The notes under the pieces: generated by a model | What the model was told of the DNA's origin: nothing | Seen by the model: the letters and a program-made list of their open reading frames with translations, nothing else | Database searches by the model: none | Origin: a virus | DNA: 64,000 nt | Virus record (IMG/VR): IMGVR_UViG_3300033153_009093 | Coordinates: 32,001-96,000 of that record | Strand: one strand, 5' to 3' | Translations under genes and position numbers: made by a program | In this document: positions 728 to 64,000 of the stretch, piece by piece | Position numbering within the stretch: the stretch's first letter is position 1 | How the letters are laid out: every line of letters starts with the position of its first letter

Positions 728-1060
728 TTAGCGTTTTGTCAATAATATATCATATCGACCATCGACATTATTAAAATTAAGATTACATTTTTGTTTATAT
801 TGTGATATTTTTTTATTAATATCATTCATATACTCTATAACTTCTATTTTCATAATTTTTTGATCCTGATATCTATTTTCATAACTCTATAAAATATAAG
901 TATAGCTATCTATTATAGATTTACAATAATTAATATCAACCATATGAATTTCTAAATTACTAACATCATAACTTTTGTTATTCATATCAACGCTATATAA
1001 TATATTCGGCTAACTTAAAAAAATAATTAATAATAAACAATATAATAATTCTTTATTCAT
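728..1060 (-). CDS. 110-aa protein with N-terminal hydrophobic segment (2 in-frame TAG); possible lysis or spanin-like protein
   Basis: MNKELLYCLLLIIFLS*PNILYS...LLTKR-TAA. Its ATG overlaps the TGA of the upstream gene (ATGA). Confidence 0.7.
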
Positions 1061-1368
1061 TTAATATACCTACTATTTAAATCTGTTAATTCGGTTTCCA
1101 ACTAACGTAGTTCTCTTTTTATAGATATAGGCATTTCATCATTTTCTGAATATTTGTCACGTAAAGACTATATTCTTTCTTGTATATTTCTAATTTTATA
1201 TAAACTAGCAATAGCATTACATTTTTCTCCGATTTCCATTATCTGGCGTTCTAATAAAATCATCTCTGTTTTTTTTACAAATGATCTATTATAATTTATT
1301 AAATAACCGATAGCGGTAAACGTAAATAGTGTAATTGTAATATAAGATGCAATTTTACCACTATTCAT
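1057..1368 (-). CDS. 103-aa membrane-anchored coiled-coil protein (2 in-frame TAG); i-spanin or holin-like candidate
   Basis: N-terminal TM (IASYITITLFTFTAIGYLI). Reading through TAG at 1168 and 1102 extends the ORF to TGA at 1057, giving an ATGA overlap with the next gene. Confidence 0.75.
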
Positions 1369-1417
1369 TATATATAACCTTTAGATTTATATAATTAATT
1401 ATATAAAATTATTATAT

Positions 1418-1597
1418 TTATTCTTTTGAATAAATGCTGCTTGTAGTTCCTAATTTACGATACAGTGGTTGAAAATCATCTTTACTACAAGCAGCATTCT
1501 ATTCAGACGTGCTATCAGTATCACCTACATATATAGGGATATCAAATAATGTCAATGTCGTGCTATCCTAATTACTACTATCTCCATAATAAAACAT
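1418..1597 (-). CDS. 59-aa hypothetical protein (2 in-frame TAG)
   Basis: MFYYGDSSN*DSTTLTLFDIPIYVGDTDSTSE*NAACSK...KE-TAA fills the intergenic gap. Confidence 0.55.
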
Positions 1598-1608
1598 TTT
1601 ATTACCCT

Positions 1609-1875
1609 TTAATGAACTGTTTCACTTTCAACAGATATATACATATTATGAAACCAATTTAATAACTCATTTATAAATGATTTTTCTGTTTTTATCTTCT
1701 GTAATAATGCTATTGCAATGTTTGAAGCTAGTAAATTTTTATTTGATATAGCAGTTGGAATAATAATTTTACTGTCAACTTTTGTGTCTGTTACTGGTTC
1801 AAAAATTACAACCGATGCATTTTTATTAATTATTAAATATACTTCATCGTCTTTCAACTTAACTGTTTCTTGCAT
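1609..1875 (-). CDS. Hypothetical protein
   Basis: 88-aa ORF with ATG start, TAA stop and upstream AGGA; no recognised motif. Confidence 0.7.
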   Translation of the reverse strand: MQETVKLKDDEVYLIINKNASVVIFEPVTDTKVDSKIIIPTAISNKNLLASNIAIALLQKIKTEKSFINELLNWFHNMYISVESETVH

Positions 1876-1939
1876 GATTTAAATATCCTATTTTTAAATT
1901 AATTAGTTATTACTTAAAATATAATATTGCGAGGGGTCT

Positions 1940-2434
1940 ATGAATAAAGAAAAATTAATAAAAATGCGTATTGCTTTAAAAAAATGGCTAGGAAATCCAC
2001 AAAATAAAAACAACCACATTGAAAAATTAAAAATTCTAAATAAATTAAATAGTATAAAATTAGAACTAAGAAGGATGGGGTATAATAAACGAGCGGGAAT
2101 CAAAGAAAAAAATATTCCTAAATCTAATAATGAATTTCATGAGCATATAGATGAATATAGATATTATTCTATTTTAAAAAGATTAAATGATCAATATATT
2201 AAGTGCAATTGTAAATTTAATCTTAATGATAAAGTTGCTACTACTGATGATAGAATTGGATTTATAAACAATATTATCGTTTATCCTGATAAAGTAACTA
2301 GAGACCAGTCAGGTATATATTTAATATTAAATATGTGCAAAACTGATGGAACAAAAGCAAAAAAATTACTTAGACGATCAAGATTAGATAATAAAGGTTT
2401 TCCGATTGAAGAAATAAATCTTTATATAACTTAA
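1940..2434 (+). CDS. Hypothetical basic protein
   Basis: 164-aa ORF, RBS GAGGGG, TAA stop. Confidence 0.75.
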   Translation: MNKEKLIKMRIALKKWLGNPQNKNNHIEKLKILNKLNSIKLELRRMGYNKRAGIKEKNIPKSNNEFHEHIDEYRYYSILKRLNDQYIKCNCKFNLNDKVATTDDRIGFINNIIVYPDKVTRDQSGIYLILNMCKTDGTKAKKLLRRSRLDNKGFPIEEINLYIT

Positions 2435-2447
2435 TATTTTTAGTATA

Positions 2448-3005
2448 TTATGAACCAAAGGTTAAATAAAGTGCTATACCAATATATCTTTCTAAAACCT
2501 TTTTTACATAATAACTACTACCATTAACATACTCATTCAAACCTGCGGGCAAATTTCCTTCCTTTTTAGTATAATAGGTAATAACATGATTTCCTGCTGT
2601 TATGTTATTACCTATTTTTTTTAGATCATTTATATTATTTATATTATATATTTTTTTTAGTTCCGGCAACCATAGCGGCATTACTTGAGTTAATCCCACC
2701 GCACCTTTTGATGAAACTGCATCTTTATCAAAATTTGATTCAACTGATGTAATAGCCAGCATTAACCAAGGGTCATTGGTATTTTTATAAACGGCTTTAA
2801 TTATATTATCAATATCTGCTTTCGTTGCACTTCTTTTAGCATAAAATTTGCACCATTTAAATAATAATTGTTTTTGTTTGCGAGAAAGTTTAGTATTTTT
2901 AGCAACCTTTAATTTTATCTCATTCGGTTTATAAACAGGTATAATATCTATTGGTTTATAATAAATATTATAACATAATAATGACGTTAATATAACTGTT
3001 AGCAT
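2448..3005 (-). CDS. Lytic transglycosylase (SLT domain) with hydrophobic N-terminus; probable endolysin
   Basis: SLT motifs AITSVESNF (catalytic Glu), KGAVGLTQVMP, NITAG and YVNG...YVKKV. All three Trp are TGG. Confidence 0.88.
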   Translation of the reverse strand: MLTVILTSLLCYNIYYKPIDIIPVYKPNEIKLKVAKNTKLSRKQKQLLFKWCKFYAKRSATKADIDNIIKAVYKNTNDPWLMLAITSVESNFDKDAVSSKGAVGLTQVMPLWLPELKKIYNINNINDLKKIGNNITAGNHVITYYTKKEGNLPAGLNEYVNGSSYYVKKVLERYIGIALYLTFGS

Positions 3006-3009
3006 AATA

Positions 3010-3552
3010 TTAATATTGAGTTGATATTAATCTTGTATCATTAAAAATTAATAATTCTTCTAATGAATAATTAGAAATGGACGTTTTTAAAGTTGAATCT
3101 TCTTCCAATTTATCTGCCTTATATTCATTAAATTCATTATATAATAAATTTAATGAATCAATATTATTTAAAGTTATCAAAACTATTCCATTAGTTGTAT
3201 CTTCTGATGCTTTAAAATCTAAAGGAAAAGTTATGGTATCTTTTAATAAATATAAATTAGTTAAATTACTTTGCTAAAATATTGTAGACTATATTTTAAT
3301 ATTAGGATATAAACTAAATGTAAATCCATAATAAATTATTGCAGTTGTAATAGCTGATATCATTTCTGCAATTTCATGTCTTAATAAATTAATAGATGCA
3401 GTGGTCAAATCTCCCTAACTAGGTTTAGTTCTTGTATCATCCTATGCTATATTTGTATATTCTGTAATGGTTTTAAACATACCTGAATATAAAGGATTGG
3501 GGCATAATGAATCTAATCCTTTAGATGGATAATAGTAAAAATTATTGATCAT
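3010..3552 (-). CDS. 180-aa hypothetical protein (4 in-frame TAG)
   Basis: ATG at 3552 with GGGGA RBS; open to TAA at 3010 if TAG is sense; abuts the SLT gene. Confidence 0.75.
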
Positions 3553-4339
3553 TCAATTCCCCTATTTTGTTAATAATAAATTTTGTGCCTCGTAAATCTA
3601 TTTTACAACTTTTTATAGATTTTATTTGTAAATAAAGTTCATCATTAGCATTACAACAAATAGGTAATGAATCCTTAATAGTTCCACAAGTATATTTTTC
3701 TTTATTTCTAATGTTTCGTATATTATACTTAACTTTTTCTAAATAGCAAGTTAATAATGTTCCATTGATAATATTATTATTTTGTTTTATTTGTGTATAA
3801 CAAATATTTTTTTCATTCAATAAATTATATACTAACATATTATATGATATATAATATTTACCTGAATGTAAAATTTTAATTTTACCGATTATACTATCAT
3901 ATTCAAAATAATTAGTATTGTCAAGATTTATTTCAAAATTATTTAAATTATTCTATTTAAAAGATGATAGTATATAATCATCTTTTAAATATCCATATAA
4001 TATATAATTATTCTAAATATCCATTTCTTCTTTTAATTTATACTATTGGGCGCTTTTTCTCACATAAGCTTTAAAATCATTAGGAGCATCACGTAAAGAA
4101 ACGCAATATTTTGATTCTAATGTTAAATGATCAAGTGAATCGGGTTTATTTAATATTACATTATCATAAATAACTCTTATAGAATCATTTATAATCAATG
4201 TTCTTAATTCTTCAGAGTCATATATATCCGATATTGTACAATAATTTGTTAAATCTATAGTACTGTCAACTGATATATATAGCCCAATATCATCTATAAA
4301 TATATCAGTTGAATCAGTATTAGTTATCTAAATATTCAT
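3542..4339 (-). CDS. 265-aa virion-type protein (4 in-frame TAG); includes track ORF 3542..3838
   Basis: Open from ATG 4339 in frame with 3838. Its N-terminal module is paralogous to that of 4343..5470. Confidence 0.75.
3896..3924 (-). promoter_or_regulatory. Candidate sigma70 promoter inside a coding region
   Basis: Minus strand TTGACA-N17-TATGAT, about 50 nt upstream of the in-frame ATG at 3838. Confidence 0.4.
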
Positions 4340-4342
4340 GTA

Positions 4343-5470
4343 TCAGATAGATCCTCCTGTTTTTGATAAAAATAATACAACGACCGGATTTTCAATATCT
4401 GAACCATCTGCGTATACTTCTATATTATCACCTTCGGAAAAATCTACATTTAATGTAGTATCCCTGTATGTAGTATCATTAATAATATTAATATCTACTA
4501 TATTAGTAAATGATCCATTTTTTCTAATATAAATATTTGAATTAACTATATTCTTTGATGTCATTATAGAAATGCTTACTAAAGTATAATCTGCATCTAA
4601 TAAAATTGATGATTTATTAGAATAAATTTCATTAACTTTTAAATATACTTTATCCGCTTTATCTTTTCTACTATAAATAAAATTTTGTCTCGAAGCTAAC
4701 CATTTTTCTCTAACAGTATCTTTTCCATATACAATACCATCTACTATTGATATATCTTCTAATTCAGTGGCATTAGTTTCTAAATCTAAAATTCTATCAT
4801 TTATATTAACATCACTTAGTTTTAACTATGAAGTTGTATCATATACATAATGAGATTTGAAATTATTACCGTCATCTTCAACAATAACGGCATTATTTTT
4901 TACAGGTACATGTACATTATCAAAATATAAACCATTCTAAATATATACTTTTTGGTCTGTCTACTACGTAGGTATTATTCTATCATTTATTTCTACATCA
5001 GCTAAAAATGCCTAATTAGTGCCATCATATTTATAATACTTTTCATCGGTTGTATTAGCAAATATGTCATTTATGTTTACAGAAGTAGGTTCAGTTGAAT
5101 CAATGTCAATTACTATATATTTTACTGGTTCAATCTAAGGATTTTCTTTTACATTATCATAATGTATTGTAGAATCTCCTGCATTTTGTAATTCAGATTT
5201 AGTATAATGTTGATCTTTTACATTATAAACATTTTCTCTTGATAAATAATCTAATGCATTAGATATATTTAAATCAACTGAACCATTATTAAGTACTAAC
5301 GATGTACCATCTGATATTAATGTTTTTAAATCATCACTATTACATAATTCCGCAAAAGTATATTGATTACTTAATACTATTGTAGCATCCGCTTCAATAT
5401 AATACCCCATATCGTTTATTAAATACGGAGAACTTAATAAATTTTTTATAATTGTCGTCTATTCGCTCAT
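4343..5470 (-). CDS. 375-aa virion/tail-type protein (7 in-frame TAG); joins track ORFs 5135..5410 and 4343..4564
   Basis: Contains YYKYDGTN*, KVYI*NG, IVEDDG...YVYDTTS* (DUF2793-like Trp motifs) and VYGKDTVREKWLAS. Ends in TGA. Confidence 0.8.
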
Positions 5471-5498
5471 AATTAAATACCTTAGTATATTTATTATA

Positions 5499-5891
5499 TT
5501 AATTTAAAATAATTTTTAATAAAGGATAATCTATTCCTTTATTTGATTTAATAAATATTTTTAATTTTTTATTTTTATTTAATAATATCTAAATATCTTT
5601 TATATAATACTCCTTAACATTTTTAGATATTATAACATCATATATAATATCATTATCATTATATAAAAAAATTGTTGAATCCGATTTGGTATCCTTAGAT
5701 AAAAATAAAATATCTTTTATATATACATCAGTATCTGATACAAATCCTATAATATTTGATGGAATTTCATTCTAATAGAAAAATCTATTCGATGTATTTA
5801 TAGATTTTATATAATATATTAAAATATTATTATTATATAATGATGTTGTTGTATCTGTTATACTATAGTTATCTAAATTATATACTAACAT
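5499..5891 (-). CDS. 130-aa hypothetical protein (2 in-frame TAG)
   Basis: MLVYNLDNY...RFFY*NEIPSNIIGF...KIILN-TAA fills the gap exactly. Confidence 0.65.
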
Positions 5892-5911
5892 TGCCACGCT
5901 CTTTTTATTTT

Positions 5912-5949
5912 ATATCATGGTATAGCGAATATTCGCTATACCATGATAT
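5912..5949. repeat. Perfect 38-bp loop-less palindrome
   Basis: ATATCATGGTATAGCGAAT/ATTCGCTATACCATGATAT; intergenic. Confidence 0.9.
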
Positions 5950-5954
5950 TTTTA

Positions 5955-6284
5955 TTACAACTGTTTTATAATTTCTCCGGCCCATGACGGAACATTTACT
6001 TGTGCAAATTTTGAAGGGTAATTTTTCAATGTTGAAATAATATAAAGTTTGACCGCTTTATAATTCATATTAGTTTCATGGAGCACTGTCATAGAATTAA
6101 CTTTATTTTCCATTCTTCCAGTAATAATTTTATGAGTAACACTTTTTATAAAGCGGTCATTTTTACTACAAAAAGCCACTGAATATAGAAGCTTATCGCC
6201 TTCAAAACGATACCCAATAGAAATGACACCGTTACGAGTTGTATCATTTTGATTTCCAAAATACATATATTTAATTTTGTCCAT
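5955..6284 (-). CDS. Phage hypothetical protein
   Basis: 109-aa ORF with AAGGA RBS; motif VAFCSKNDRF...KIITGRM resembles small phage proteins. Confidence 0.75.
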   Translation of the reverse strand: MDKIKYMYFGNQNDTTRNGVISIGYRFEGDKLLYSVAFCSKNDRFIKSVTHKIITGRMENKVNSMTVLHETNMNYKAVKLYIISTLKNYPSKFAQVNVPSWAGEIIKQL

Positions 6285-6300
6285 ACTTTATCCTTATAAA

Positions 6301-6693
6301 TTAATTAATATAATTAGCTATAATATTTTTTACTTGCCGCCCGTTTACGCTACCATTAGGAAAATGTTTTATAACTTTTCCAATAGCGGCCATAGGGTTA
6401 ATTTTATCGAAGTCAATATTTTTTAAATATGAAATAATATCTTGTTCAGAAATTTGGACAGGAAGATATCCCATTAAAATATCCGTTTCAATATCAGCTT
6501 CAGATTGATCGGTGCAAGATTCTTTTAAAAATTTTAATGTTTTATTAATAACAGATATTATATAATCATCATCATAATTTTTATCTGACTTTCGTTGAAT
6601 ATCGAATATTAATACTCTTAATACTGATATTTTTATTTTATTTTTTAGTTTTAAAGCATTAGTTAAATCTACTTTAATTTTATTATATATCAT
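6301..6693 (-). CDS. yqeY: GatB/YqeY domain protein
   Basis: IKVDLTNALKLKNKIKISVLR, IISVINKTLK, ETDILMGYLPVQIS and MAAIGKVI...NGRQV match the YqeY pattern. Confidence 0.8.
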   Translation of the reverse strand: MIYNKIKVDLTNALKLKNKIKISVLRVLIFDIQRKSDKNYDDDYIISVINKTLKFLKESCTDQSEADIETDILMGYLPVQISEQDIISYLKNIDFDKINPMAAIGKVIKHFPNGSVNGRQVKNIIANYIN

Positions 6694-7325
6694 ATTTGAT
6701 ACCGGTTATGATAAAAGAAGACACATTCAGGTAATCGTAGAGGAATTTTTGATTGTTTGTATATATCACAATTTAATATTTTCTTAGCATGTTCCATTGA
6801 TTTAAAAAATGAAATGTGTTGTTTTTGTTTACAATTGGGCTGTATTGGTATAGTGCCAAAAAATAAATCCGTTGAATATTTTTTACATTTTAATATCACC
6901 TCCGATGATTTATATAAATGCTCTATGACTTCAAATGCCATAATTATATCATACTTATTATTTAAATTATCTAAATAAATATTAATATCTTCATGTAAAA
7001 ATCGTACATTATTTATAGAATATTTATTTTTTAAATAATTACATCTTTCTATTCTATTCTTTGAAAACTCTATTGATGTAATCTCGCAATTATATTTTTT
7101 TGCTATCAATAAATCTAATATACCATGACCACATCCTAAATTCAATATATTTTTTCCTTCTAAATCAATTTTAAACTTATCAAGAATAAATAAAAAATGA
7201 GTCTAATCTAATGAAGGAGAAATTTTATTACCCGTTTCAAATGAGTTTATACTTTGATTCAATAAATGAATATCATTTTCATATGTATATAGTAATTTTT
7301 CTTCTTCTATATATTTACATTTCAT
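6690..7325 (-). CDS. Class I SAM-dependent methyltransferase, 211 aa (1 in-frame TAG at 7203); paralog of 11826..12440
   Basis: ILNLGCGHG, YDIIMAFEVIEHL, GTIP. The ATG at 7325 overlaps the upstream TGA (ATGA) once TAG is read through. Confidence 0.85.
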
Positions 7326-7525
7326 AATTCTTTTACTCCTTCTTCTTGCTCTTTTAGCATTTTCTGAAATTGTTTTTCTAATTCAATACAATTATAAACT
7401 GCATTTTCCGATTCTTCTATTCTAATTGTCCAATTATCTTTATCGTATCTTGTATAAAAAGAATAGCAACTTTCATCAGTTTCAATAAAATGTATTATAG
7501 CTTCAGTGATTTGTTCTATTATCAT
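7322..7525 (-). CDS. Hypothetical acidic protein
   Basis: 67-aa ORF overlapping its neighbours in an operon-like arrangement. Confidence 0.65.
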   Translation of the reverse strand: MIIEQITEAIIHFIETDESCYSFYTRYDKDNWTIRIEESENAVYNCIELEKQFQKMLKEQEEGVKEL

Positions 7526-7817
7526 ATTTATTCGATAATCCTTTATAATTTTTTATAAAATTAAACATTTTTAATTGGCGTTCCGTTCTTGTATCGCATG
7601 TATAATACTGTTCGCAATCTATACAAATGATATTTCCTAAATGAATGCAAGGATATTTTTCACTAAACATTTTATAACAATCAAATTCATCGTTATAGTT
7701 TTGCTCAAATAATGAATAATTAATCATTGGTTTATAATTTTTCGCAGCTATTAAATCTAGTGAATCATATTTAGGTAACCTATAAAATAATCTTAATAGA
7801 TATGATAAAAAGCTCAT
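7503..7817 (-). CDS. Hypothetical protein with CxxC
   Basis: 104-aa ORF, CIDC...C, ATGA overlap with the endonuclease stop. Confidence 0.65.
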   Translation of the reverse strand: MSFLSYLLRLFYRLPKYDSLDLIAAKNYKPMINYSLFEQNYNDEFDCYKMFSEKYPCIHLGNIICIDCEQYYTCDTRTERQLKMFNFIKNYKGLSNKYDNRTNH

Positions 7818-9268
7818 ATATTTCCTTTCGTTTTAAATTTTAATTTTCCGCAATCCCATACTCTATCATAACCATTATTCAAACAATTCCGATATTCTGT
7901 CAATTCAGGATTATATGTATTAAATTTTTTCTTCAATATCTTTTTTTGAAAACCTCTTTTATGAAGTAGATATGACTTGCCTCTAAAATAATAATAAGAA
8001 GGATCGACTTCATGAACAAATTTAAATCCATTTTTCAAATAAACCTTACCTTCAAAATATCGAAGGTCTGCGAAAGTATATATTGAATTAAAATTATAAT
8101 TATTAATAAAACATTTCAATAACTTAGAAAAAGCGCCATGAACTAATGTATTCTTTTTATTAACAAATCTTGTCAATTCGTAATCTTCTTTGTTTTTTCT
8201 AAAAGATATTGCGCTAACTAATTGATCTTTATAATATAACCCAAAATGTTTACCTCCAAAAAATCCTTGAATATGATTATTATTAAAGAAATCTTTTGAT
8301 ATTTTAGAATTAATTATTTTTATTTTACATTTCCTTGCACCGATCTTTGTTTCATAAATATTTAATTTTGCGAGAATAATAGATTTTATTATTTCTTTTT
8401 TAAATATCCATTCTGGTTCAAAGATAGATAGTAGTTGATGTCCTTCTTTTTTACAACCTAAATATTTTTCTTGATGATATCTAATAGGATTTTTATTATT
8501 ATTTTTTAATACTTGTTCGGAATGCCAGTAAATGCCGTTAAATTCAATTGCAAGTTTAAAAGAAGGTATCACTATATCTAACTCTTTTCCGTTCAAAATA
8601 GACCTATTAGACTGCTCGTAATCAATAGTTTTAGAATCAAGGAAAGCGCATATTTCTAATTCTGGTTTTGAAATATTTTTTGAACACATATTACAACCAT
8701 TTCCTCTTAAATGACCTTCGGGGGTTTGTTTAAATATTCCATGGATTGGACAAATAATTTTTACATGTTTTTGAGAATGTATATATATAGTAACTGAATA
8801 ATCATACTTATTATTATATATATTATTTGCCCTATGTATAAATTCTTCAATAGTTAATGTTTGATATTTTCCTCTTTTTTCTATTGAACACTTTTTACAT
8901 CCTTGTAATTGATTCAAATGCGCATCTGGAGTTTGTTTAAATATTCCGTGAATTGAACAAATAATTTTTATCTTGGTTCTACAATTCTTATATTCTACTA
9001 ATGAATAATCATACTTATTATTATGAACTTTACTAGCTCGTTCAATAAATTCCTGAATTGAAAATTTTTTATTATTAATTGAACACTTTTTACATCCTTG
9101 TAATTGATTCAAATGTGCATCTGGAGTTTGTTTAAATATTCCATGTTCAGAGCAAATAATTTTTATCTTGGTTCTACAATTCTTATATTCTACTAATGAA
9201 TAATCATACTTATTATTATGAACTTTACTAGCCTTTTCAATGAATTCTTTTGTTGTTAATTTTTTCAT
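7814..9268 (-). CDS. Hef-like homing endonuclease: three KYDYS...CxxHG...GCxxC Zn repeats, a PD-(D/E)XK/Vsr-like nuclease and a C-terminal acetyltransferase-like domain
   Basis: Repeats KYDYSLVEYKNCRTKIKIICxxHGIFKQTPxxHL..GCxxC; ELDIVIPSFKLAIEFNGIYWHS; ARKC..NHIQG..ELTRF..ADLR..VWDCG. Confidence 0.85.
   Translation of the reverse strand: MKKLTTKEFIEKASKVHNNKYDYSLVEYKNCRTKIKIICSEHGIFKQTPDAHLNQLQGCKKCSINNKKFSIQEFIERASKVHNNKYDYSLVEYKNCRTKIKIICSIHGIFKQTPDAHLNQLQGCKKCSIEKRGKYQTLTIEEFIHRANNIYNNKYDYSVTIYIHSQKHVKIICPIHGIFKQTPEGHLRGNGCNMCSKNISKPELEICAFLDSKTIDYEQSNRSILNGKELDIVIPSFKLAIEFNGIYWHSEQVLKNNNKNPIRYHQEKYLGCKKEGHQLLSIFEPEWIFKKEIIKSIILAKLNIYETKIGARKCKIKIINSKISKDFFNNNHIQGFFGGKHFGLYYKDQLVSAISFRKNKEDYELTRFVNKKNTLVHGAFSKLLKCFINNYNFNSIYTFADLRYFEGKVYLKNGFKFVHEVDPSYYYFRGKSYLLHKRGFQKKILKKKFNTYNPELTEYRNCLNNGYDRVWDCGKLKFKTKGNI
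8883..9247. repeat. Near-identical intragenic tandem duplication, 195-bp period
   Basis: About 170 bp at 8883-9052 recurs at 9078-9247 with few substitutions and encodes two Zn-finger repeats. Confidence 0.9.
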
Positions 9269-9271
9269 TTA

Positions 9272-11416
9272 TTATTCTTTTATATTTTCAACAATTTTAC
9301 TAGAATTAATTGCCACATATCGAATCATAAATTGACAGTTCATTGTGATAGTGGTTGCAAGAATTATATTAAAAAGGCGGGAACGCCTAAATCCCAAATA
9401 TCCATAAACACTATTAGCTATAATCTTATCAACCAATTGAGCAATATTTAAATTTAAAATCTCTGGATCATCCGAAAGTAACCCTTGTTCTTTTACTTTC
9501 TTCTTCATTTCTTTTTTAATTGACTGCCTATCAGAAATAGGAAATCTAATTAACTTACGGAAAAATGATTCTTTAATATGAGCAGGCAAAAACACCGCAC
9601 CCGTTTCTGTCAATACTAATTCCTTTTCATACATCTTTTTAAATATCTCGATTATTTCAAAATGTTTAAATTTTTTAAATATATCATTTACAACATCATA
9701 AATTTCTACAACTAGGTTTTCGTTATCAGTTATGAAAGAAATAAAATTATCTCTTTCATATAAATACAATAGAGCTATATTTTCAGGAACTTGATACACC
9801 CAACTATCGCAACCATTATTCGTTGAATAAATACTAGAGGGGTACATACTACTTGCATCAAAGTCTATCACATTTAAATGAATACCTTTTGATGGTGTCT
9901 TGACATATGCTCCCGGATACTTATCATAATTCCAAATGAACGGAAACTGCCCCTTTGTTAATTTGATATTTTTTAAATCTACCGTTTCTAAATCCTTTTC
10001 AGTTAAATCATTGTATATATTATATTTTACTTCATTCAACTCTTCTTCATTTGTAAATAATGAAAAGGTTTTATTATCTTCTCTTAATCTTTGAATAAGT
10101 TCTAATCTACTATCATTTAAAAAATTCAAACGTCTATATATATTCCATATTTTTTGAGTATAAAAACTTTGAACTTTTATTGCGGATGTGACCATTAATT
10201 TATTTTTCTTTGCTTCTGTAGATATATATGCATCAAGGATATTATTAATTGAAAGCGTTGCCGCAGTAAACCCCCTTGTCATCATTTTTTGTTTAAATAA
10301 AATCTTAACAAATAATAATTTATCATCTATCAATTTATTTAAAATAACATCGCCTACATTATATGTAATAAAATTTATAGGATCTGTTAAATATTCCACA
10401 TTTAAATTAGAAATTTCTATTTTTGCTGTAATATTATCTTCTTCTTTTTTTAAAATCTTTTTGGCAATTTTATTTAACGCATAAGATGGGTAATTGGTTC
10501 GGTCATAAAATTTTATTAATTGAATATAATCCAGACTTAATATTTTAGTAGTATAATATGTATAAGAATTCATACCAGTTTTACTATCTACAATATTTAA
10601 TGTCTGATAAATTTCTCCAAATGAATCATTAAAAGCTCCTAATATTTTGATATGTTTACATCTATTATAAGTATACAATGTATCAAAATTTAAACTATTC
10701 CAACCCATCATTACGTCAAAATTTTTTATATATTTTAAAAATTCTATTATTAATTTTTTCTCATTATCAAATTTAAATATTTTATATTTATAACCTTCAC
10801 CGAATTTTTCTTTTAATTTTTTATATAAACCTTCATCAAAATTTTTAATTTTATCATGATGTAAATTATTATATAAAAAATAAACATTTATGTTGTTTTT
10901 TTGTAAATCAATATGAGCAATAGAATTTATTTCATATTTTGCCTGCTCCGCTTCCGGGAATTCTTTATCATCATGTAAAACTTCAATATCAAATATTCCA
11001 ATTTTAATATTATTTAAATAATCATTATCATATTGGAATATTTCTTGTTGTAAAAATTGAGTTTCGATTTTATAATCATCATATATATCAAATTGAAAAG
11101 ATAATATAGATGGAAATTTATTTAATAATTTTAAATTCTTCTTTCCTTCATATGCACTCGTTAATCCTTTCTTTAACGAATTATAATTCCTATATGTTAA
11201 CGTTAAATCCTTTACCTTTTCTTCTAACGGTAATGTATATCTTATTCGCTTTGTAAATTTAGATAGTTTTACTGTATATTTAGGATCATGTTTATGCCCT
11301 GTTATTTTTTTTGAATTACCATTACTATCTATTTCTTTAATTATATAATGTAAATTATTATCTTTATAAGAATAGTAGGCATCTATTGGGTAATATTTCT
11401 TTGTTTCTGTTGTCAT
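9272..11416 (-). CDS. polB: Family B DNA polymerase, N-terminal part (exonuclease plus motifs A and B; lacks motif C)
   Basis: FDIEV (ExoI), GWNSLNFD (ExoII), YNVGD (ExoIII), YPGAYV, DFDASSMYPS (A), KIIANSVYGYLG (B). Ends in TAA before any DTDS. Confidence 0.9.
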   Translation of the reverse strand: MTTETKKYYPIDAYYSYKDNNLHYIIKEIDSNGNSKKITGHKHDPKYTVKLSKFTKRIRYTLPLEEKVKDLTLTYRNYNSLKKGLTSAYEGKKNLKLLNKFPSILSFQFDIYDDYKIETQFLQQEIFQYDNDYLNNIKIGIFDIEVLHDDKEFPEAEQAKYEINSIAHIDLQKNNINVYFLYNNLHHDKIKNFDEGLYKKLKEKFGEGYKYKIFKFDNEKKLIIEFLKYIKNFDVMMGWNSLNFDTLYTYNRCKHIKILGAFNDSFGEIYQTLNIVDSKTGMNSYTYYTTKILSLDYIQLIKFYDRTNYPSYALNKIAKKILKKEEDNITAKIEISNLNVEYLTDPINFITYNVGDVILNKLIDDKLLFVKILFKQKMMTRGFTAATLSINNILDAYISTEAKKNKLMVTSAIKVQSFYTQKIWNIYRRLNFLNDSRLELIQRLREDNKTFSLFTNEEELNEVKYNIYNDLTEKDLETVDLKNIKLTKGQFPFIWNYDKYPGAYVKTPSKGIHLNVIDFDASSMYPSSIYSTNNGCDSWVYQVPENIALLYLYERDNFISFITDNENLVVEIYDVVNDIFKKFKHFEIIEIFKKMYEKELVLTETGAVFLPAHIKESFFRKLIRFPISDRQSIKKEMKKKVKEQGLLSDDPEILNLNIAQLVDKIIANSVYGYLGFRRSRLFNIILATTITMNCQFMIRYVAINSSKIVENIKE

Positions 11417-11459
11417 AAAAATTGATTAATTTGTTAACATTTTAAATATGAGGTTAATA

Positions 11460-11594
11460 ATGAAAATAACAGCGTTTTGTCCAGTTTGCAAAGAATAGAT
11501 TGAGATGCCTAAAATAGGATGAAGTAAATTAAAAAAATACTTCTGCAAGGTTTGTAGAAAAGCATATCCTATTCATAGATTAAAGAAAAAATAA
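11460..11594 (+). CDS. 44-codon Zn-ribbon ORF containing in-frame TAG and TGA
   Basis: RBS GAGGT; MKITAFCPVCKE[TAG]IEMPKIG[TGA]SKLKKYFCKVCRKAYPIHRLKKK-TAA. The two CxxC motifs straddle the TGA. Confidence 0.6.
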
Positions 11595-11604
11595 TACTAA
11601 AAGT

Positions 11605-11823
11605 TTATTCCATGAGTTTTAAACTATAAAAAATTAAATCTCTTTGGACACTAATACCAACTACTTCCAAATCAACCGCTTCATATATTGATTTATTTAT
11701 AATTACTAAATATCCATCATCTACTCTACATTTAGGTATAACATTTTGAAAGAATGTTTCAAATGTTTCATCGCATGCATTTCTAACGTAAATTTTATTA
11801 CAATGATTTATTGTTTCTGACAT
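11605..11823 (-). CDS. Hypothetical protein
   Basis: 72-aa ORF directly after the methyltransferase stop. Confidence 0.7.
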   Translation of the reverse strand: MSETINHCNKIYVRNACDETFETFFQNVIPKCRVDDGYLVIINKSIYEAVDLEVVGISVQRDLIFYSLKLME

Positions 11824-11825
11824 TG

Positions 11826-12440
11826 TTATTTTTTCTCATAATAGAATACTAATTGATTTGGAAATCTTAAAGTGAAGTTATTAAATATTTTTACTTCTAA
11901 TTGTGATTCAATTTCTTTTACTGTTTTGAATGCTGATAAATGTACATTATTTGGCTTATCTTGTAAAGGAATAGTTCCTATAAGTTTACCATTCTTATTT
12001 AATATTTTTTTTAATTGTATGATAGCATTTTCAGGATTTTTCAAATGTTCAATTATTTCAAATGCAATTATAGTATCAAATTTATTTTCTTTATATGAGC
12101 TATTATCAAGAAAATAATTTACATCCATATTTAAAGCTATTAAATTGGTATGATTTTTACTTTTTTCTATTAACTTATCTATTCGGTTTTTTGAATAATC
12201 TATTGCAACTAAACTATTCATAACAAACTTATTTAATAGAAATAAGGAAGTTTCCCCTGTTCCGCAGCCAAAATCTAAAACATTAGAATTTTTATTGAAA
12301 TCTATATTAAAATAAGCTATAATTTCTTTAAATGTTTTTAATGTCATAGATGCATTTAAAAATTTACGTTTATCAAAATATGTTACATTGTTTTGATAAT
12401 GACTTAATGCGTTTTTCTCCGTTTCATATTTACAATTCAT
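11826..12440 (-). CDS. Class I SAM-dependent methyltransferase (TAG-free paralog)
   Basis: VLDFGCGTG, IDYS, FDTIIAFEIIEHL, GKLIGTIP. Confidence 0.88.
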   Translation of the reverse strand: MNCKYETEKNALSHYQNNVTYFDKRKFLNASMTLKTFKEIIAYFNIDFNKNSNVLDFGCGTGETSLFLLNKFVMNSLVAIDYSKNRIDKLIEKSKNHTNLIALNMDVNYFLDNSSYKENKFDTIIAFEIIEHLKNPENAIIQLKKILNKNGKLIGTIPLQDKPNNVHLSAFKTVKEIESQLEVKIFNNFTLRFPNQLVFYYEKK

Positions 12441-12452
12441 ATAGTCTTAACC

Positions 12453-12629
12453 TTATTTTATTTGTTTTAAAGTTATTTTATTAAAGGGATTCTTAAAAAT
12501 TGTAACTTTTTTATTTGTAATTAAATCAATAAAACTTATTATTTCCATTGATTTATATCTTCTCTGCAATTTTTTATTATTTGTTTCGAAATAAAATTTC
12601 TTATTATTGAAAATGCATTCAATTTTCAT
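12453..12629 (-). CDS. 58-aa basic hypothetical protein
   Basis: MKIECIFNNKKFYFETNNKK...KQIK-TAA; below the track's length cutoff and fills the gap. Confidence 0.5.
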   Translation of the reverse strand: MKIECIFNNKKFYFETNNKKLQRRYKSMEIISFIDLITNKKVTIFKNPFNKITLKQIK

Positions 12630-12664
12630 AAATTAATATTATTAAAAGTAAAAGGTAAATTTTA

Positions 12665-13135
12665 ATGCCAAAATATAATAACAATACTCCAGCATCGCAA
12701 GGTAATGAATATTTAAAAGTTCCGCCACATACAAAAGATTTTGAAAGTATTTATTTTTATAACATAAATCATGTTAATATATCAGATGAGCCTCCGTATT
12801 ATAATCCTATATTATATAAAGATATAATAAATTTTTCATCCATAAATAATTTTCAAGTAAATTTAACAGATAATATGATAGGTCAAAACACTTTTCTTTT
12901 TATTCAAGTAAATTCAAAAAATTCTACATCATTGACAGATGTAGAAATAATTTTTAATGATATTAATAATTTACCATCATTACCAATATCAAATTCTGTA
13001 TTTACTATTAATAATAATCATAGAATAAAAAAAATTTTTATTAATACTAAAAATTGTAATGGCGAAATTATCATTTTAGTAACGGATAAATTTATACCTT
13101 CTTTTCCGTCAATGTCTTATGACTATAAACCATAA
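12665..13135 (+). CDS. Hypothetical Asn-rich protein
   Basis: 156-aa ORF, RBS AAGGT, TAA stop followed by a hairpin. Confidence 0.7.
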   Translation: MPKYNNNTPASQGNEYLKVPPHTKDFESIYFYNINHVNISDEPPYYNPILYKDIINFSSINNFQVNLTDNMIGQNTFLFIQVNSKNSTSLTDVEIIFNDINNLPSLPISNSVFTINNNHRIKKIFINTKNCNGEIIILVTDKFIPSFPSMSYDYKP

Positions 13136-13193
13136 AAAATTTAATGTCAAGATTATAAAATATCTTGACATTAAATTAATCATATGATAAAAT
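13122..13193. promoter_or_regulatory. Back-to-back sigma70 promoters within an inverted repeat
   Basis: Plus strand TTGACA(13165)-N17-TAAAAT with extended TG; minus strand TTGACA(13150)-N17-TATAGT. Both -35 boxes lie in the arms of AATTTAATGTCAAGAT/ATCTTGACATTAAATT. Confidence 0.7.
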
Positions 13194-13219
13194 TATTAAT
13201 AACCAATCAAGGATATATT

Positions 13220-13645
13220 ATGAGAATAAATAATAATAAAAATTTATATATGAAAACTGATAACATTAATAAGTGTTATATAGGATTTCATGAGAACAAT
13301 GAAACAACTAATGATATAATATTACATAATAATATACTAAGTTTATATATAAATTATATAAAAAATAAAAAATTATTATCATTAAAATATTTTAAAATAT
13401 TATTACCATTATATTATAAATTTACATTTAATAAAACTATAATTTATAAAAATATAAATTATGATATTACATTAAAAGAAAATTTAATTACTCTATTAAA
13501 TGATTATTCAGTTATTCAATTATATAAAATTATGTTATATTATATTAACGATGATGATATAGATATTAAACAATTAACGGCAATGTTTTATTCAACTTTG
13601 TATTACATTAATAAGGAGATAAGTACAGATAATGGAATTAACTAA
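13220..13645 (+). CDS. Hypothetical protein (start reassigned from 13184)
   Basis: ATG 13220 has an AAGGA RBS; ATG 13184 lies inside the promoter spacer. Confidence 0.65.
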   Translation: MRINNNKNLYMKTDNINKCYIGFHENNETTNDIILHNNILSLYINYIKNKKLLSLKYFKILLPLYYKFTFNKTIIYKNINYDITLKENLITLLNDYSVIQLYKIMLYYINDDDIDIKQLTAMFYSTLYYINKEISTDNGIN

Positions 13646-44150: not shown

Positions 44151-44158
44151 ATTGTATT

Positions 44159-45118: not shown

Positions 45119-45137
45119 AACAATACCTATTAATTTA

Positions 45138-45163: not shown

Positions 45164-45183
45164 AATATACATGGTAATAATGA

Positions 45184-46128: not shown

Positions 46129-46140
46129 GGTAATATTTTC

Positions 46141-47319: not shown

Positions 47320-47325
47320 TATTAT

Positions 47326-47979: not shown

Positions 47980-47993
47980 ACCAAGGATGAACA

Positions 47994-49534: not shown

Positions 49535-50064
49535 GTCTAATTAATAATTGACCATTGTATATTAACTGTATAAATATTAGCATTAATTTTTAATATTGGA
49601 ACTATAGAATCTAAATAATTCAGTTCATCATATACTTCATCTTTATATAAAAATGAACTGGTTTTCTAAAAAATATTACTGGTTAATTTCCAATTATTAA
49701 ATTCGTTCTATAAATTAGAAAATATATCCAGTGGCAATCCATCAGGTGCGATTAATAGTATATCATCAATTTTATTCTGAATTTCTGATATTACATCTGA
49801 TGATATATCTATTCCTATATCATCATATGCTAAATTAGCTTGCCATGAATACCCTTTTAACTTATACGAAACCGGTTCAATTGTAGGGGTGGCTTTAAAT
49901 GAAAAAGAATATTTAAAGCCACCCTAATCAGCGTCACAGCCAACTTCGTTACATACACATGCAATTTCCTGATAATCACTTTGAACCTTTCCTACATATT
50001 TCAATGATTGGGATTCTACATTAAAATATGGCATTTTATATAACGATGAACTTTCTTTTATCAT
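49531..50064 (-). CDS. 177-aa protein downstream of the tape measure gene, distal-tail/baseplate candidate (4 TAG)
   Basis: ATG 9 nt after the TMP stop with GAGGA RBS; context DAD*GGF; TTAA overlap with the converging gene. Confidence 0.7.
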
Positions 50065-58393: not shown

Positions 58394-61300
58394 TTTTAAA
58401 CCATTCTAAATCAGGAAAAGATAAATCGCAGCCCGCTGTTCCTTTATATACATCTGTTAATATATTAAGCGATTTGCCGTTTACAGAATCTCCCATATCT
58501 TCCTCTCTAATATTTCCAAAACTATCGGTTTTTTTATACGTAGGATTTTTAACATAATCTAACCGCTTTACTTCAGCTATTAAATATTCATTATCAAGAA
58601 CATCAATCAATTCTACTTTATATCTAATATCCTTTGTTATTGTATAATTTTCACCATTAAATGTATAGTAAATTATTAACGTTGTATAATATTCGCCTGT
58701 TTGATTCGGTACATTAAATCCTCTTATTAATATTTTTAAATTATTTTTATCATATTTATAATAAGTTTTATTTATTATTTTTTCATTATTAGATTTAATA
58801 TTATAAATTTCATTAGTATCTCCGAATATAATACAATAATCTGTATCATTAATAAAATTATCCGCTATTCTTATTTTATCTATAACTAAATACGATTGAG
58901 TCGCTTTAAATATTTGAACCGGCATTTCAAATATCATTTTATAATTTGAATCTGATACAATGGTTATAGGATTTTCATTATAATCTACCGTTTTAATTAT
59001 CAAAGGATTTTCTAATACTTTTCTTTGCATAGCACTATGCAATTTATATGGCGAATTTGGCAAATTATATTTAGTATTATCTATAACTAATTGTAATGTA
59101 TTCTATTTTAAATTTTCAAAAATTATAGATAAATAATTATCTTCAGTATTAAATTTTATAGTATTATCACCCTTAAAATAAAATTCATATCCATTATTAT
59201 CTACTAATGAACTGTTAATAGAAGCGGATATAATATTATCATAATGACCATCGCAAGATAATGAGATATAATGAGATATTTTTAAACCATTATTTAATTT
59301 CATTTTTATATTTGTCTTAAAGTACCCACTACTATTAAAAGTATTAGATAAAAAGTTTGTATTTGTCAAGATATCATTGACATCATCAAATAGCCAATTT
59401 TCCTAATTTATAGTATCTTCTATAGGAATATTACCTGTTTCATTAAATAACTTTAAATGAAATTTTAAAGCTTCATCCTACATACTATGATTAGATTCAT
59501 TTTCTTTAATAGACGGAAATATAAAACTATTAGTATATGTACCACTTAAATCATTATTATAAATTTCCAGTGTTCCAGTATCCATTAATTTTGAAACTTT
59601 TTCATAAGATATTTCTGGCAATATATATTTATGAGATTTCCCAACTAAACTTAAATTTTTTGTTAATGATTTTGATTTTGGTGAATTTTCAATAGCTAAT
59701 TCATCTACTAAATTTGATAATATTTCAATAGTATTGCTAGGTATATTTTTATCTTTTCCTACAAAACTATTAGCTATACTTATGGCTAAATTTTCGCCAT
59801 AATCTCTAAAAAATAAACTTAAAATAGTTACAGGGTCAACTATTTTAAAATTCAATAAAATTCCAAATGTTTTAAAATCTTCTAAATCAAAATCATTATT
59901 TAAAATATATGATAGCAGCGTTTCATTTTTTACAGAAATAATACCATTTAATGAAAAAGAGAATTGATCAATGTTAGTTTGTTTACCTATTAAATATAAA
60001 TAATTTTGGTCTGTATCGATCATATTATTAACTTCTGTAAGTGCTGTCTCATCAGATGGTGAATTTACAAAATTACTAATATCATCTATAATATATTTCG
60101 ATGATGATGGATGTATTAGAGGTATCTTTATATAAATAACATCACCAAATTGAGTAGTCTAATTTATTATATCTGTTAAATTTGATCTATCTATTACAAC
60201 TTTATATGTTTCATTTACGTAAAATAAATAATCAATATCAACTAATGCATTATTATTTTCAACTTGCAAAATTGAAGAATTTATAAAAGATATTTTACTT
60301 GATGAAAATGTCTTTTCTATTTTATATTTATCGTTTTGATTTGATTCGTCTATATAAAATTGATTTTGTTCAAAATCAATTTGTACAATTTTAGCTGTCT
60401 TATCTATAAAGTTCATTACAGCCCTCAAATAATCATCTAATGAAGGTATAGGCAATTCAACTGTATCAATTATCGATGTCACATCAGTTTCTAAATCATG
60501 TTCAATTAAATCATATATAGCTATTCCACTTTCATAACTATCACTATAATCGGTCGCATCTATATCTTCTGTTAAAGATAATATTTTAAATTCTAAAGGA
60601 GCAATATTATATTCTTTATAATCATTAATAATTGTCTTTGGTGTATTATTTTCTTTTAATGAAAATGCTATTTTTTTATTATTGAATGATGAATTAAATA
60701 ATAATAATGTTGATTTTGATTTTGTGGGTTTGTCAATATAATTAACTAAATCCTTCTTATTATTACTACCAGAAAATAAATCATAATAATTTGAAGTATG
60801 GCTATCTTGACTATCCTAAAAAGCATTCTTTGCTAATGATGACAGCTCTTCCTTAGTTTTTTCTACCGAAACTTTTTTATCTATAACAAAAACAGTATTT
60901 GCCGATTCTTTATAAAACATATATGGAACAAACTATTCCAATTTTATATTATGAGAATAACAACCTAATAGCAATGAAGCTATATTAAACCCAAAATATT
61001 TTGGTTTATTTTTTATATTTAAATTTAAAGTAGTTGTAATACAATTATTACATTTATATCTTATTAAATAATTAAAATAATCCAATACTTCATATTTTGA
61101 ATTAGACTAAATTACATTATTTAATTCATCTTCTGGATTTTCTAAATCTTCATAATCCAATGGAATAGCAACGTATAAATCATCTGTACAGTTAAATATA
61201 TCAAAATATAATTCTGATACTTTTACGGCTGTTGAATCTATTGTTGATAATTTTATTTCTAATTCTATATTATGTACTATTTCTTTTTGCTATGAATATT

Positions 61301-64000
61301 CTGGATAAATGTCATAATATTCAATATAATCTAATAATTTAGGTGAATAAGTTGTTGCTGATTCTATATACTCTCCTCTATTTTTTACGTTCATTAAAAT
61401 GGAGCTTTCTTTTGATGAACTAAAATCAGGGTTATAACCAATATAATTATTATAATTATTATATAATTCATAAGTTAAATCAACATCTATAGGTATAACA
61501 ATATTATTATTAACATTATTTGATATAATAAAATTCATATTTATTTTGTATTCTTTTAAAATATCATCAATAGTTGTATGATCCGCAATATCAGTTATTT
61601 TACCATCTAATAATAATGCACCTTTACTTTCATCATAATATTCAATGTTATATAAATTTGTATATTCAAAATCTTCTACTAAATCTGATAATTCATTTAA
61701 TGAAAAACTTGCATATATTCGTATATATTTATTTTGATTATCATTTACTATATAAGGTAATACATTATTTTGATTATCAAATTTATTATATATAGTGCTA
61801 TTTTTATCGATAACGCTTATATCATCAATATCATAAATTGTAGAATCTGTTAATTCATAAAACCCTGTATCAGTATTGCCTATATAATTATTAAAAAATA
61901 AGCATTTCTTATTATCTGGTACATAATTCTATATATCATCATCTATATCAAATAACGAAAGTGATATATTTTTAGAATATATAACTTGAGGTAATATATT
62001 ATCCAATTCTGTATTATAAACTCCTACATTTACATCTCTGATGACTTCATTTATAATATCACTATAAAATATTCCTATTAAAATTACAGCAGTCGTAGAT
62101 ATAAAATTATCAAAATTGGAATAAAATTTTATTGATAAATTATTAAAATATGTAAATGTATTATATTCCATATTTACATATAATTTCTATTCTAATTGAT
62201 CTACTATATGTTCATTGGATGTAATAAGATTTTCTATATTGTAAATTAAATCATTTCCGGAGGTAGTGAAGTCCTCCATTAATATTTCAAATTGTACATT
62301 ATAAATATTATATGTATCAATATTATATACTTTACAATATAAAACCATTTTTGAAATATCGCCATGAATATTGCCGCCATTTTTTATTTCTAATTCTTTA
62401 TAATATATAGGCTTATGTGTGATATCATAACCGGAGATTAAATTCATTGCTCCGTTGATATATGTTATTTTATCAACGGGGTTACTGTCATAAAATCTTA
62501 CATAATTTCTTATATATTTATTACTATTATGTAATTCTAATTTATTAACATGATAATCTATATTTTCTAAATCGTAAATATTTACAATATCATAACTTTC
62601 AGAATATGTATCATAAATCATATAAATATATTCCATACGATTCTTATTTATTAGCGTAAAATCATTAAAATTCCACTGGAAAGTATTAGAATTATATGCA
62701 TTATAAACAACTTTATCATATTCTGTAAGTTCATTATCGCCATTGACATAATTATTTATAATATCTTTATATTGAGTGATATTATAATCCGTAGAATCGC
62801 TAGTTATAGAATGATTTATTATTTCTAATCCTATATAATTATTAATATCATTAATAGAATTATATGAACATATGTTCATATTATTGGAATTTAATAACAT
62901 AGGAACCGGAAAAGGTAATAATTTTATTTTTCCAGAATTAACATTATTAATAAAAGTTGTATAGTTTGTACTATTTAAATAATTAGAATTGCTATTATCT
63001 ATATCTATTGCTAATCCGTAAATTTTAAATCTATCATTGTCTACAAAGTTATTCGTTATTAGAATATTATTTATATTATCCGTAGCGTGTAATTTATATT
63101 CAAAATCATTTAAATTATCATAGTCTGATACAAAATTTATTTCCTCCTTTGACATTATATCAGTATAAGGAGTTAAAGCTACTGAAGAATCTAATAACTC
63201 TTTTCCTAATATTTCACCATAATGATAATTGTCTGCATTAGTATAATCAGATTTACTATAAGTGTAAATTTCTTGATATCTTTTTTTATAATACGGATAG
63301 GATAATATTACATTATCATTCTCTATTAAATCATTATCTATTTCTGAAAGCCTTATAATAAAATTATTATTTATATCTGACCTAAAAAAAACATTATTGT
63401 CTAATAATCTAAACCCACTGACATTCAATAAATTAGCTGTTGTTACATCTATATATAATTCTTTAATTGAGCTTTCTGAATTTTCTATTTCATTTTTTAA
63501 ATTTAGGGCGTTTAATTTTGTAGTAATATCTATTAATTCTAAATATTCCCCTATATTTAGAATTATATCATCATTTATAATACCAGTTTCAGTTATTTCG
63601 ATATTAGAATCTATTAATTTAAATATAAACTCCAACCCATAATAGATATCATCACCTAAAACAATTTTGTAATTTTCTAAAGTATATTCATCAAATACAA
63701 TATCTTTGCCATACTGAGTTGAATGTATTTGATTTGTAGAATCATTATTTATTTCATCAGGTTCATAACTATAATTATAATTCATATAATAAATATCATT
63801 AAATGTGCCGCTATATTTTTTTAATTCACCGGCTATTATGGAGTATTCATTATTAATAGTAATGATATCATATTGAACTTCATCAATATCATTATTATTA
63901 TAGTAATTATAAATGTTTTCTATGCCTAAATATAAATGATGAGTAGATAAACTATTAGGAATACTATAATTATATATTAATTTATCGAAAGAATAATAAA
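58386..64000 (-). CDS. Giant structural-type protein of at least 1870 aa, 5' end beyond the window (TAG-recoded)
   Basis: Seven track ORFs (62187, 61929, 61290, 60159, 59478, 59103, 58386) lie in one frame. I found no TAA/TGA from 64000 to the TGA at 58386. Confidence 0.8.

Follow-up and report, generated by a model that had tools for sequence, protein, structure and literature searches.

Phages whose genetic code departs from that of their hosts have been described with two reassignments only, TAG to glutamine (Gln) and TGA to tryptophan (Trp) (Borges et al., preprint 10.1101/2021.08.26.457843; PMC9523058), a pattern interpreted as a constraint that depends on which host synthetases tolerate suppressor anticodons. 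Later tools and surveys handle TAG recoding as code 15. A 2025 preprint (PMC12636597) adds phage pairs of tryptophanyl-tRNA synthetase (TrpRS) and tRNA(UCA) serving UGA, one pair of tyrosyl-tRNA synthetase (TyrRS) and tRNA(CUA), and one tRNA reading UAG as alanine, with no UAG-to-Trp case among them. Here we deal with the in-frame TAG codons of a phage genome, IMG/VR virus record IMGVR_UViG_3300033153_009093 (180,374 bp, rated 100% complete by CheckV, with a whole-genome GC content of 24%), of which bases 32001-96000, a stretch of 64,000 nucleotides, form the window analysed; positions are those of the window unless marked as genome positions. An earlier note on this window had proposed that TAG is read there as Trp and not as Gln, and three independent sequence tests speak for that proposal: the residues found in homologue columns at TAG, the exchange of TAG with TGG in window genes, and a depletion of TGG accompanied by a codon ratio at A:G equilibrium.

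The code 15 phages (crAss-like, Lak, Garnet and others; 10.1101/2021.08.26.457843, PMC9523058) share with this phage the confinement of in-frame TAG to some genes, the terminase among them, the absence of TAG from replication genes and from the recoding machinery, a phage tRNA(CUA), and TAA and TGA kept as stops; they differ from it in the amino acid, Gln there and predicted Trp here, and in that the present phage has a synthetase of its own for the reassigned codon but lacks release factor 2 (RF2). The phages that turn TGA into Trp (Jade, Borges et al.; AP1 and HF2 with TrpRS:tRNA(UCA), PMC12636597) likewise reassign a stop to Trp with a phage TrpRS and a suppressor tRNA, and keep the recoding genes themselves in the standard code. 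In this phage, by contrast, the codon and anticodon are UAG and CUA instead of UGA and UCA, the tRNA discriminator is U73 rather than G73 or A73, no release factor gene lies alongside, and the synthetase is of a four-cysteine, Fe-S type. The same reassignment is that of NCBI translation table 32, the code of the extremely AT-rich plastids of Balanophoraceae, in which TAG is Trp and has largely replaced TGG; there it is genome-wide, whereas here it would be confined to a class of genes and served by the virus's own synthetase and tRNA. As in table 32, TAG aligns here with Trp and is interchangeable with TGG, and TAA and TGA are stops. A literature search for UAG or TAG read as Trp returned no phage report, only a paper on a parasitic-plant organelle and an unrelated one on Drosophila histochemistry; we thus found no description of a stop-to-Trp UAG code in a phage.

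The meaning of in-frame TAG

Translated with table 11 the window falls into short open reading frames (ORFs), and with TAG taken as sense the fragments join into long, closely spaced ones that all close on TAA or TGA. The 29 TAG-bearing window ORFs hold 187 in-frame TAG and 26 TGG in 16,596 codons and, in the same frames, neither TAA nor TGA, so that the claim of interruptions by TAG alone holds; the 16 TAG-free ORFs hold 20 TGG in 3,703 codons. About 7% of the window's trinucleotides are TAA or TGA, so that frames of 800-2200 codons free of both cannot be attributed to chance. The readthrough junctions at 1057/1060, 17668, 32423, 35086/35089 and 49531/49534 are as claimed, the TAG-TAG pairs (22039-22044 on the plus strand, 4961-4966 on the minus strand) are real, the peptide contexts YKYDGTN*, KVYI*NG, YVYDTTS* and TG*SIDYI (asterisks standing for TAG) are all present, and the 1253-amino-acid (aa) ORF would indeed otherwise have only two Trp, its two TGG facing 20 TAG. 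As to the statement that no gene ends in TAG, no ORF requires a TAG stop (the 179 predicted ORFs of the genome end in TAA 150 times and in TGA 29 times), although the statement in its full extent is not entirely demonstrable: in eight genome ORFs a TAG stands one to five codons before the TAA or TGA, about 3.7 being expected. At codon 927 of the ORF at 23925-26711 a relative has TGG, which makes the terminal-region TAG of that gene a sense codon.

Pfam and PHROGs assigned no family to 30 large window ORFs. Profile-based inference of the code on the window's own genes is therefore impossible, and the description of these ORFs as structural, whose frames are real, is a label by inference; the ORF at 4343-5470, which had been called DUF2793-like, finds no Pfam support for that name, its single match being a sub-threshold one to DUF3969. 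Two genes outside the window do have standard-code homologues in number. The first, a DUF5662 gene (genome 123991-124443; Pfam 1.8e-26), carries five TAG and no TGG, and in an alignment with 120 homologues of 57-71% identity its TAG columns are 76%, 97%, 100%, 100% and 99% Trp and make up every conserved Trp column of the family; the conserved Gln columns keep Gln, spelled CAA, and the conserved tyrosine (Tyr) columns keep Tyr except two. The second is the large terminase subunit gene TerL (genome 22947-24758), with nine TAG and no TGG, which was aligned with 114 standard-length homologues from an exhaustive HMMER search. Its three strongest Trp columns (77%, 97% and 96% Trp) are all TAG and Trp is the commonest residue at a fourth TAG column, the other five falling in columns dominated by Leu or Phe (two) or in variable columns (three), none of them in a Gln column. 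Over these 14 columns a Codetta-style log-odds score is +21.4 for Trp, the next residue being Phe with -17.0. Thus the comparison of Trp with Gln in profile columns at TAG, which the earlier note had advised, favours Trp, with 0 of 14 columns dominated by Gln. For the window methyltransferase and the metallophosphoesterase, alignment with sequences of the Protein Data Bank (PDB) told nothing about the TAG sites, and within-genome paralogues place TAG, at few sites, opposite Trp, His, Leu, Tyr, Asn, Asn and Lys.

Comparison with related phages gives a second line of evidence, drawn from window genes. Three database proteins are full-length homologues of the 928-aa protein (52-69% identity). They show Gln at the TAG sites of this phage, but show it also at its TGG sites, and the contigs on which they lie yield these proteins only with TAG taken as Gln; indeed, the public records (P0121-P0123, from contigs L008-L011) are table 15 calls with Gln at every TAG. 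Their Gln residues are therefore an annotation artefact, so we discarded them as evidence for Gln and compared the DNA instead. Contigs L008, L009/L010 and L011 are syntenic with the window from about 13.6 to 37.7 kb, and codons were compared over ten genes. Against L009, at 73% aa identity, two-fold synonymous sites are saturated, with P(TAC|TAC) of 0.14 and P(TAC|TAT) of 0.12. In the same comparison TAG is opposite TAG 60 times and opposite TGG eight times, and TGG is opposite TAG ten times and opposite TGG five times, so that P(TGG|TAG) is 0.12, near P(AAG|AAA) of 0.08 and P(GAG|GAA) of 0.10. Gln codons (CAA/CAG) are aligned with TAG at 2 of 112 sites, as against 10 of 16 for TGG (p = 2e-9), and Tyr codons (TAT/TAC) at 4 of 443, as against 60 of 74 TAG that stay TAG (Fisher p = 1e-59). 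These counts make TAG a synonym of TGG and not of the Gln or Tyr codons, and the exchange pattern recurs in L008 and L011, which are more distant lineages. The TAG positions themselves are conserved in independent assemblies from other samples. Beyond these relatives, the 1253-aa protein and its 4-sequence alignment found none in viral-contig homology searches, and tblastn of the protein against GenBank phages gave no match.

Codon composition adds a third line. Genome-wide there are 62 TAG-bearing ORFs; with the 2213-aa ORF set aside, TAG accounts for 1.18% and TGG for 0.18% of their codons, compared with 0.85% TGG in TAG-free genes. Over all TAG-bearing genes TGG occurs 45 times in 26,897 codons, and over the TAG-free genes 222 times in 26,044 (p = 8e-31), a depletion of about five-fold; the Gln content of the two groups is similar (1.83% and 2.27%). 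The ratio of TAG to TGG in the window, 88:12, matches those of AAA to AAG, GAA to GAG and CAA to CAG in the same genes, which together with the depletion indicates that TAG and TGG act as synonyms that differ by A or G and stand at mutational equilibrium, and hence a long-established code rather than leaky readthrough. A drift from TGG to TAG under AT pressure, as had been suggested, is compatible with this ratio.

TAG is thus very probably the evolutionary equivalent of Trp in this phage clade, as judged from homologue columns and codon exchange. With fairly high confidence UAG may also be taken to serve as the Trp codon of a large gene set that comprises the terminase, the big unannotated and presumably virion ORFs, and a few others. 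Genes for replication, and others that are presumably early, are free of TAG and use TGG for Trp.

The tRNA and the synthetase

The whole genome has, according to ARAGORN, one tRNA and one transfer-messenger RNA (tmRNA); Rfam confirms them (59.4 and 100.7 bits), and neither lies within the window. The tRNA (genome c[108714-108787], 74 nt) has the anticodon CUA in a CUCUAAA loop, a C1-G72 pair, U73 and an encoded CCA. Bacterial tRNA-Trp has as its identity elements a G73 discriminator and a CCA anticodon. The tRNA-Trp(CUA) predicted in the earlier note was therefore found as a tRNA(CUA), without the bacterial Trp identity, as it has U73 and not G73, so that the name tRNA-Trp would rest on the codon evidence and not on the sequence of the tRNA. 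The label "Pyl" given by ARAGORN is anticodon-based, and pyrrolysine was rejected because the TAG columns are Trp and the one synthetase of the Trp/Tyr or Glu/Gln classes in the genome is TrpRS-like, no search for a pyrrolysyl-tRNA synthetase having been made. In exact-pattern scans 15 viral contigs shared the anticodon arm only, in unrelated tRNAs, and a metagenome scan gave no match.

A TrpRS, sought in the full genome on the same suggestion, has a counterpart in a single TrpRS-like class Ic synthetase of 316 aa (genome 134073-135023, minus strand; Pfam tRNA-synt_1b, PF00579, 2e-23) with LHIGH and KMSKS motifs, which is the only synthetase of the Trp/Tyr or Glu/Gln classes in the genome. Both TAG and TGG are absent from its gene, in this phage and in three relatives alike. 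Neither a glutaminyl-tRNA synthetase (GlnRS) nor a release-factor domain is encoded in the genome, and the RF2 that had been looked for is accordingly not there. The significant PDB matches of the single protein are all TrpRS, and its nearest Atlas structure is a TrpRS (TM 0.76). It found no relatives in viral-contig homology searches; its 14 homologues, which share 39-68% identity with it and come from contigs as long as 276 kb, include three that JGI calls TrpRS, and across this clade the best NCBIfam E-values are 2.9e-23 for trpS and 8e-15 for tyrS. When a profile of the 15-member clade was compared with the PDB, the best match was the Fe-S TrpRS of Thermotoga maritima, 2g36 (3.5e-24, profile positions 1-305, almost the full length), the next 12 matches were also TrpRS, and the first TyrRS followed at 9e-6, 18 orders of magnitude weaker. 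C230, C253, C258 and C261 are invariant in the 15 members and align with cysteines of 2g36, among them those we take to be its cluster-binding residues. The phage clade thus shares with the [4Fe-4S] enzyme of T. maritima the HIGH, KMSKS and four-cysteine motifs and differs from it in overall identity (about 25-30%), in a diverged region after the cysteine motif and in the CUA anticodon of its presumed tRNA substrate. We consider the phage protein a TrpRS-like synthetase resembling the four-cysteine Fe-S-cluster type, with cluster binding and amino-acid specificity as predictions.

The TrpRS neighbourhood is the same in relatives as here, with a 5'-3' exonuclease, ClpP, an rIIB-like gene, a dUTPase and a ribonucleotide reductase; a GT9 glycosyltransferase near TrpRS is annotated in L029 and in this genome. 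One relative, a 166-kb genome whose TrpRS is 68% identical, has a tRNA(CUA) at the syntenic site (25 kb walked) and exchanges TAG and TGG with the present genome. Its tRNA body is unrelated to that of the present phage, the two sharing C1-G72, a pyrimidine at 73 and the anticodon only, and the meaning of TAG appears to be conserved in it while the tRNA body is not.

That the phage TrpRS charges tRNA(CUA) with Trp seems to us somewhat more likely than not. Early in infection the host would read TAG as a stop; the phage would then express its single tRNA, with the acceptor end and anticodon given above and its own CCA, together with the Fe-S-type TrpRS-like enzyme, whose gene is free of both TAG and TGG. 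Charging of tRNA(CUA) with Trp by this enzyme would render the TAG-bearing genes translatable, and neither GlnRS nor TrpRS of the host would act on the tRNA, owing to its unusual acceptor end. In E. coli the suppressor su7, a tRNATrp(CUA), is largely mischarged with Gln, which would explain the need for a dedicated synthetase. We hold with moderate confidence that this AT-rich jumbo phage clade has evolved a natural orthogonal TrpRS/tRNA(CUA) pair that reassigns UAG to Trp, and that it uses the pair as a temporal switch, with TGG in early genes and almost exclusively TAG in late ones. Outside a plastid this would have no precedent as an amber-to-Trp code, and among phage amber codes it would be the first that the phage enforces with a synthetase of its own.

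Such a phage, reading TAG as Trp with its own synthetase, would break the rule by which host synthetases limit phage codes. It would also mean that current pipelines mistranslate such genomes, with Gln placed at every Trp-TAG site in the public proteins of the clade and homology searches and structure prediction corrupted in consequence. A natural TrpRS/tRNA(CUA) pair whose acceptor end is not of the bacterial kind is a candidate for use as an orthogonal pair in expanding the genetic code. The idea that late-gene expression is timed by recoding can be tested on the sharp division between genes with only TGG and genes rich in TAG.

Competing readings of TAG

Several observations weigh against Trp, or against its delivery by the pair just described. 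The residue inserted at UAG is predicted from evolutionary equivalence. The tRNA has U73 instead of G73 together with C1-G72, and its CUCUAAA loop can be derived from a Trp or a Tyr tRNA alike; in the 166-kb relative the tRNA(CUA) (L032:14600-14690) is a 91-nt class II molecule with a long variable arm and C73, and two bodies so unrelated mean that the pairing of synthetase and tRNA is not conserved in a simple way. Taken alone, the synthetase scores higher with tyrS (40.3 bits) than with trpS (32.1 bits) and stays below every NCBIfam cut-off (114-597). Between lineages TAG is opposite Tyr at 14-23 sites, a frequency that can be explained by the fact that Trp-to-Tyr is a single G-to-T/C step in this code and that the mutation bias favours T. 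Finally, three TAGs in a paralogue of a homing endonuclease (L004:8207-9103, minus strand, genome 116207-117103; 54% identity to the window ORF at 7814-9268) stand at Asn, Asn and Lys positions of ten sister repeats, two at the Asn of the repeat motif H-G-N-K-Y-D-Y and one at Lys, and these are the only sites unlike Trp that we saw. The frame of this paralogue is otherwise intact, and Trp may be tolerated at the three positions.

The alternative that survives best, improbable as we hold it, is ambiguous decoding, in which tRNA(CUA) would receive Trp in some cases and another amino acid in others (e.g. Gln by host GlnRS), or a share of ribosomes would terminate at TAG, and late proteins would be heterogeneous. 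The CUA anticodon is a GlnRS determinant in E. coli, neither a release-factor gene nor an anti-RF1 function was found in the genome, and several of the TAGs occupy variable positions that perhaps tolerate any residue. Against this, TAG stands in columns of invariant Trp in essential proteins, TerL among them, and is conserved across lineages in the manner of Trp, which would be costly were a large share misread or terminated.

A Tyr meaning, with the class Ic synthetase acting as a TyrRS-like enzyme on a tRNA(CUA) whose C1-G72 is typical of archaeal and eukaryal tRNATyr, is very improbable. The single-protein scores of 40 against 32 bits, the acceptor pair and loop of the tRNA, the TAG sites opposite Tyr, the long variable arm of the relative's tRNA(CUA), which is like that of bacterial tRNATyr, and the reported phage TyrRS:tRNA(CUA) pair inserting Tyr (PMC12636597) all lean towards it. 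They are opposed by the exchange counts, in which TAG stays TAG and Tyr codons hardly ever face it and TGG is aligned with TAG ten times and with TAT/TAC 0-2 times, by the invariant Trp columns that hold TAG and the nearly complete retention of TAT/TAC in conserved Tyr columns, and by the clade profile, with its preference for TrpRS and its aligned Fe-S cysteines.

Still less probable is Gln, the code 15 reading, with a suppressor tRNA charged by host GlnRS as in crAss-like and Lak phages. Gln is the sole amber reassignment in phage surveys, the public gene calls for the relatives use it, and the Asn and Lys positions of the endonuclease paralogue suit Gln somewhat better than Trp. On the other side, none of the 14 profile columns is dominated by Gln and conserved Gln columns are CAA, the exchange of Gln codons with TAG falls far below that of TGG, the Gln of the database proteins is aligned even with TGG of this phage, as a table 15 artefact would be, and a late proteome with TAG as Gln would contain only 0.17% Trp. 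That the TAGs are real stops, the ORFs being pseudogenes, assembly errors or products of rare readthrough, has nothing to commend it beyond the standard-code reading itself and is refuted by the frame counts, by the cross-lineage conservation of TAG and by the TerL columns, the terminase itself being affected.

Gene layout and other features of the genome

The ORFs of the window are collected in Table 1, where TAG-free genes form a block that serves as an internal control. The six consecutive large ORFs from 19012 to 35089 on the plus strand, with 12 TGG in total, provided the main in-window test set, and the minus-strand pair at 15218-18939 has syntenic homologues in L008 and L011 in which TAG is conserved.

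Table 1. Recoded and TAG-free ORFs of the window with their TAG and TGG codons
Position	Strand	Feature	TAG	TGG	Remarks
728..7325	-	Smaller TAG-recoded ORFs			728-1060, 1057-1368, 3010-3552, 3542-4339, 4343-5470, 5499-5897, 6690-7325; TAG-free ORFs interspersed
4343-5470	-	ORF	7		includes TAGTAG at 4961-4966
6690-7325	-	S-adenosylmethionine (SAM) methyltransferase	1		
7503..15173		TAG-free replication block	0	12	Trp spelled TGG; internal control
7814-9268	-	DUF723/Vsr homing-endonuclease-like ORF, 484 aa			in TAG-free block
9272-11416	-	Family-B DNA polymerase fragment			in TAG-free block
11826-12440		Methyltransferase paralogue			in TAG-free block
13632-15173		UvrD-like helicase			in TAG-free block
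15218-17668	-	ORF, 816 aa	10	1	no known family
17668-18939	-	ORF, 423 aa	7	0	no known family
19012-22773	+	ORF, 1253 aa	20	2	TAGTAG at 22039-22044
22775-23896	+	ORF, 373 aa	6		
23925-26711	+	ORF, 928 aa	18		
26714-30085	+	ORF, 1123 aa	19		
30108-32423	+	ORF, 771 aa	12		
32423-35089	+	ORF, 888 aa	10		
36063..50064	both	13 TAG-recoded ORFs	46	8	no Pfam or PHROG family; examples 36063-37703, 38974-40800, 40806-41945, 41969-43780, 46141-47319, 47326-47979
47994-48458		Single TAG-free ORF			within the 36063..50064 block
50074-56715	-	Gly/Ser/Ala-rich ORF, 2213 aa	5	1	5 pieces under table 11
56741-58453	-	ORF, 570 aa	9		
58386-64664	-	ORF, 2092 aa	12		extends beyond window end

Within the TAG-free block the polymerase ORF comprises an exonuclease domain and only the start of the polymerase profile (positions 40-195 of 453), and the endonuclease-like ORF follows directly, as if a mobile endonuclease had split the polymerase gene. 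The genome ends (1-114 and 180261-180374) form an exact 114-nt inverted terminal repeat, IMG/VR likewise classing the record under inverted terminal repeats, and together with the family-B polymerase they may raise the question of protein-primed replication. The DNA of the 2213-aa ORF is locally richer in GC, up to 37% in 4-kb bins against 24% for the genome, and unlike the rest in composition; the ORF may encode an internal virion protein or one of tape-measure type, or may have been acquired recently.

Elsewhere in the genome, a TnpB/Cas12f-like ORF (L004:14520-15851, plus strand, genome 122520-123851), recognised by a weak Pfam match to the Cas12f1-like TNB domain, contains five TAG and no TGG, and this mobile-element gene seems adapted to the phage code. 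The tmRNA (genome 171981-172339, minus strand, L007:9981-10339; Rfam RF00023, E 7.6e-38) encodes, according to ARAGORN, the tag peptide ADDYAIAMAA, and one might speculate on a role for it with ribosomes stalled by altered termination.

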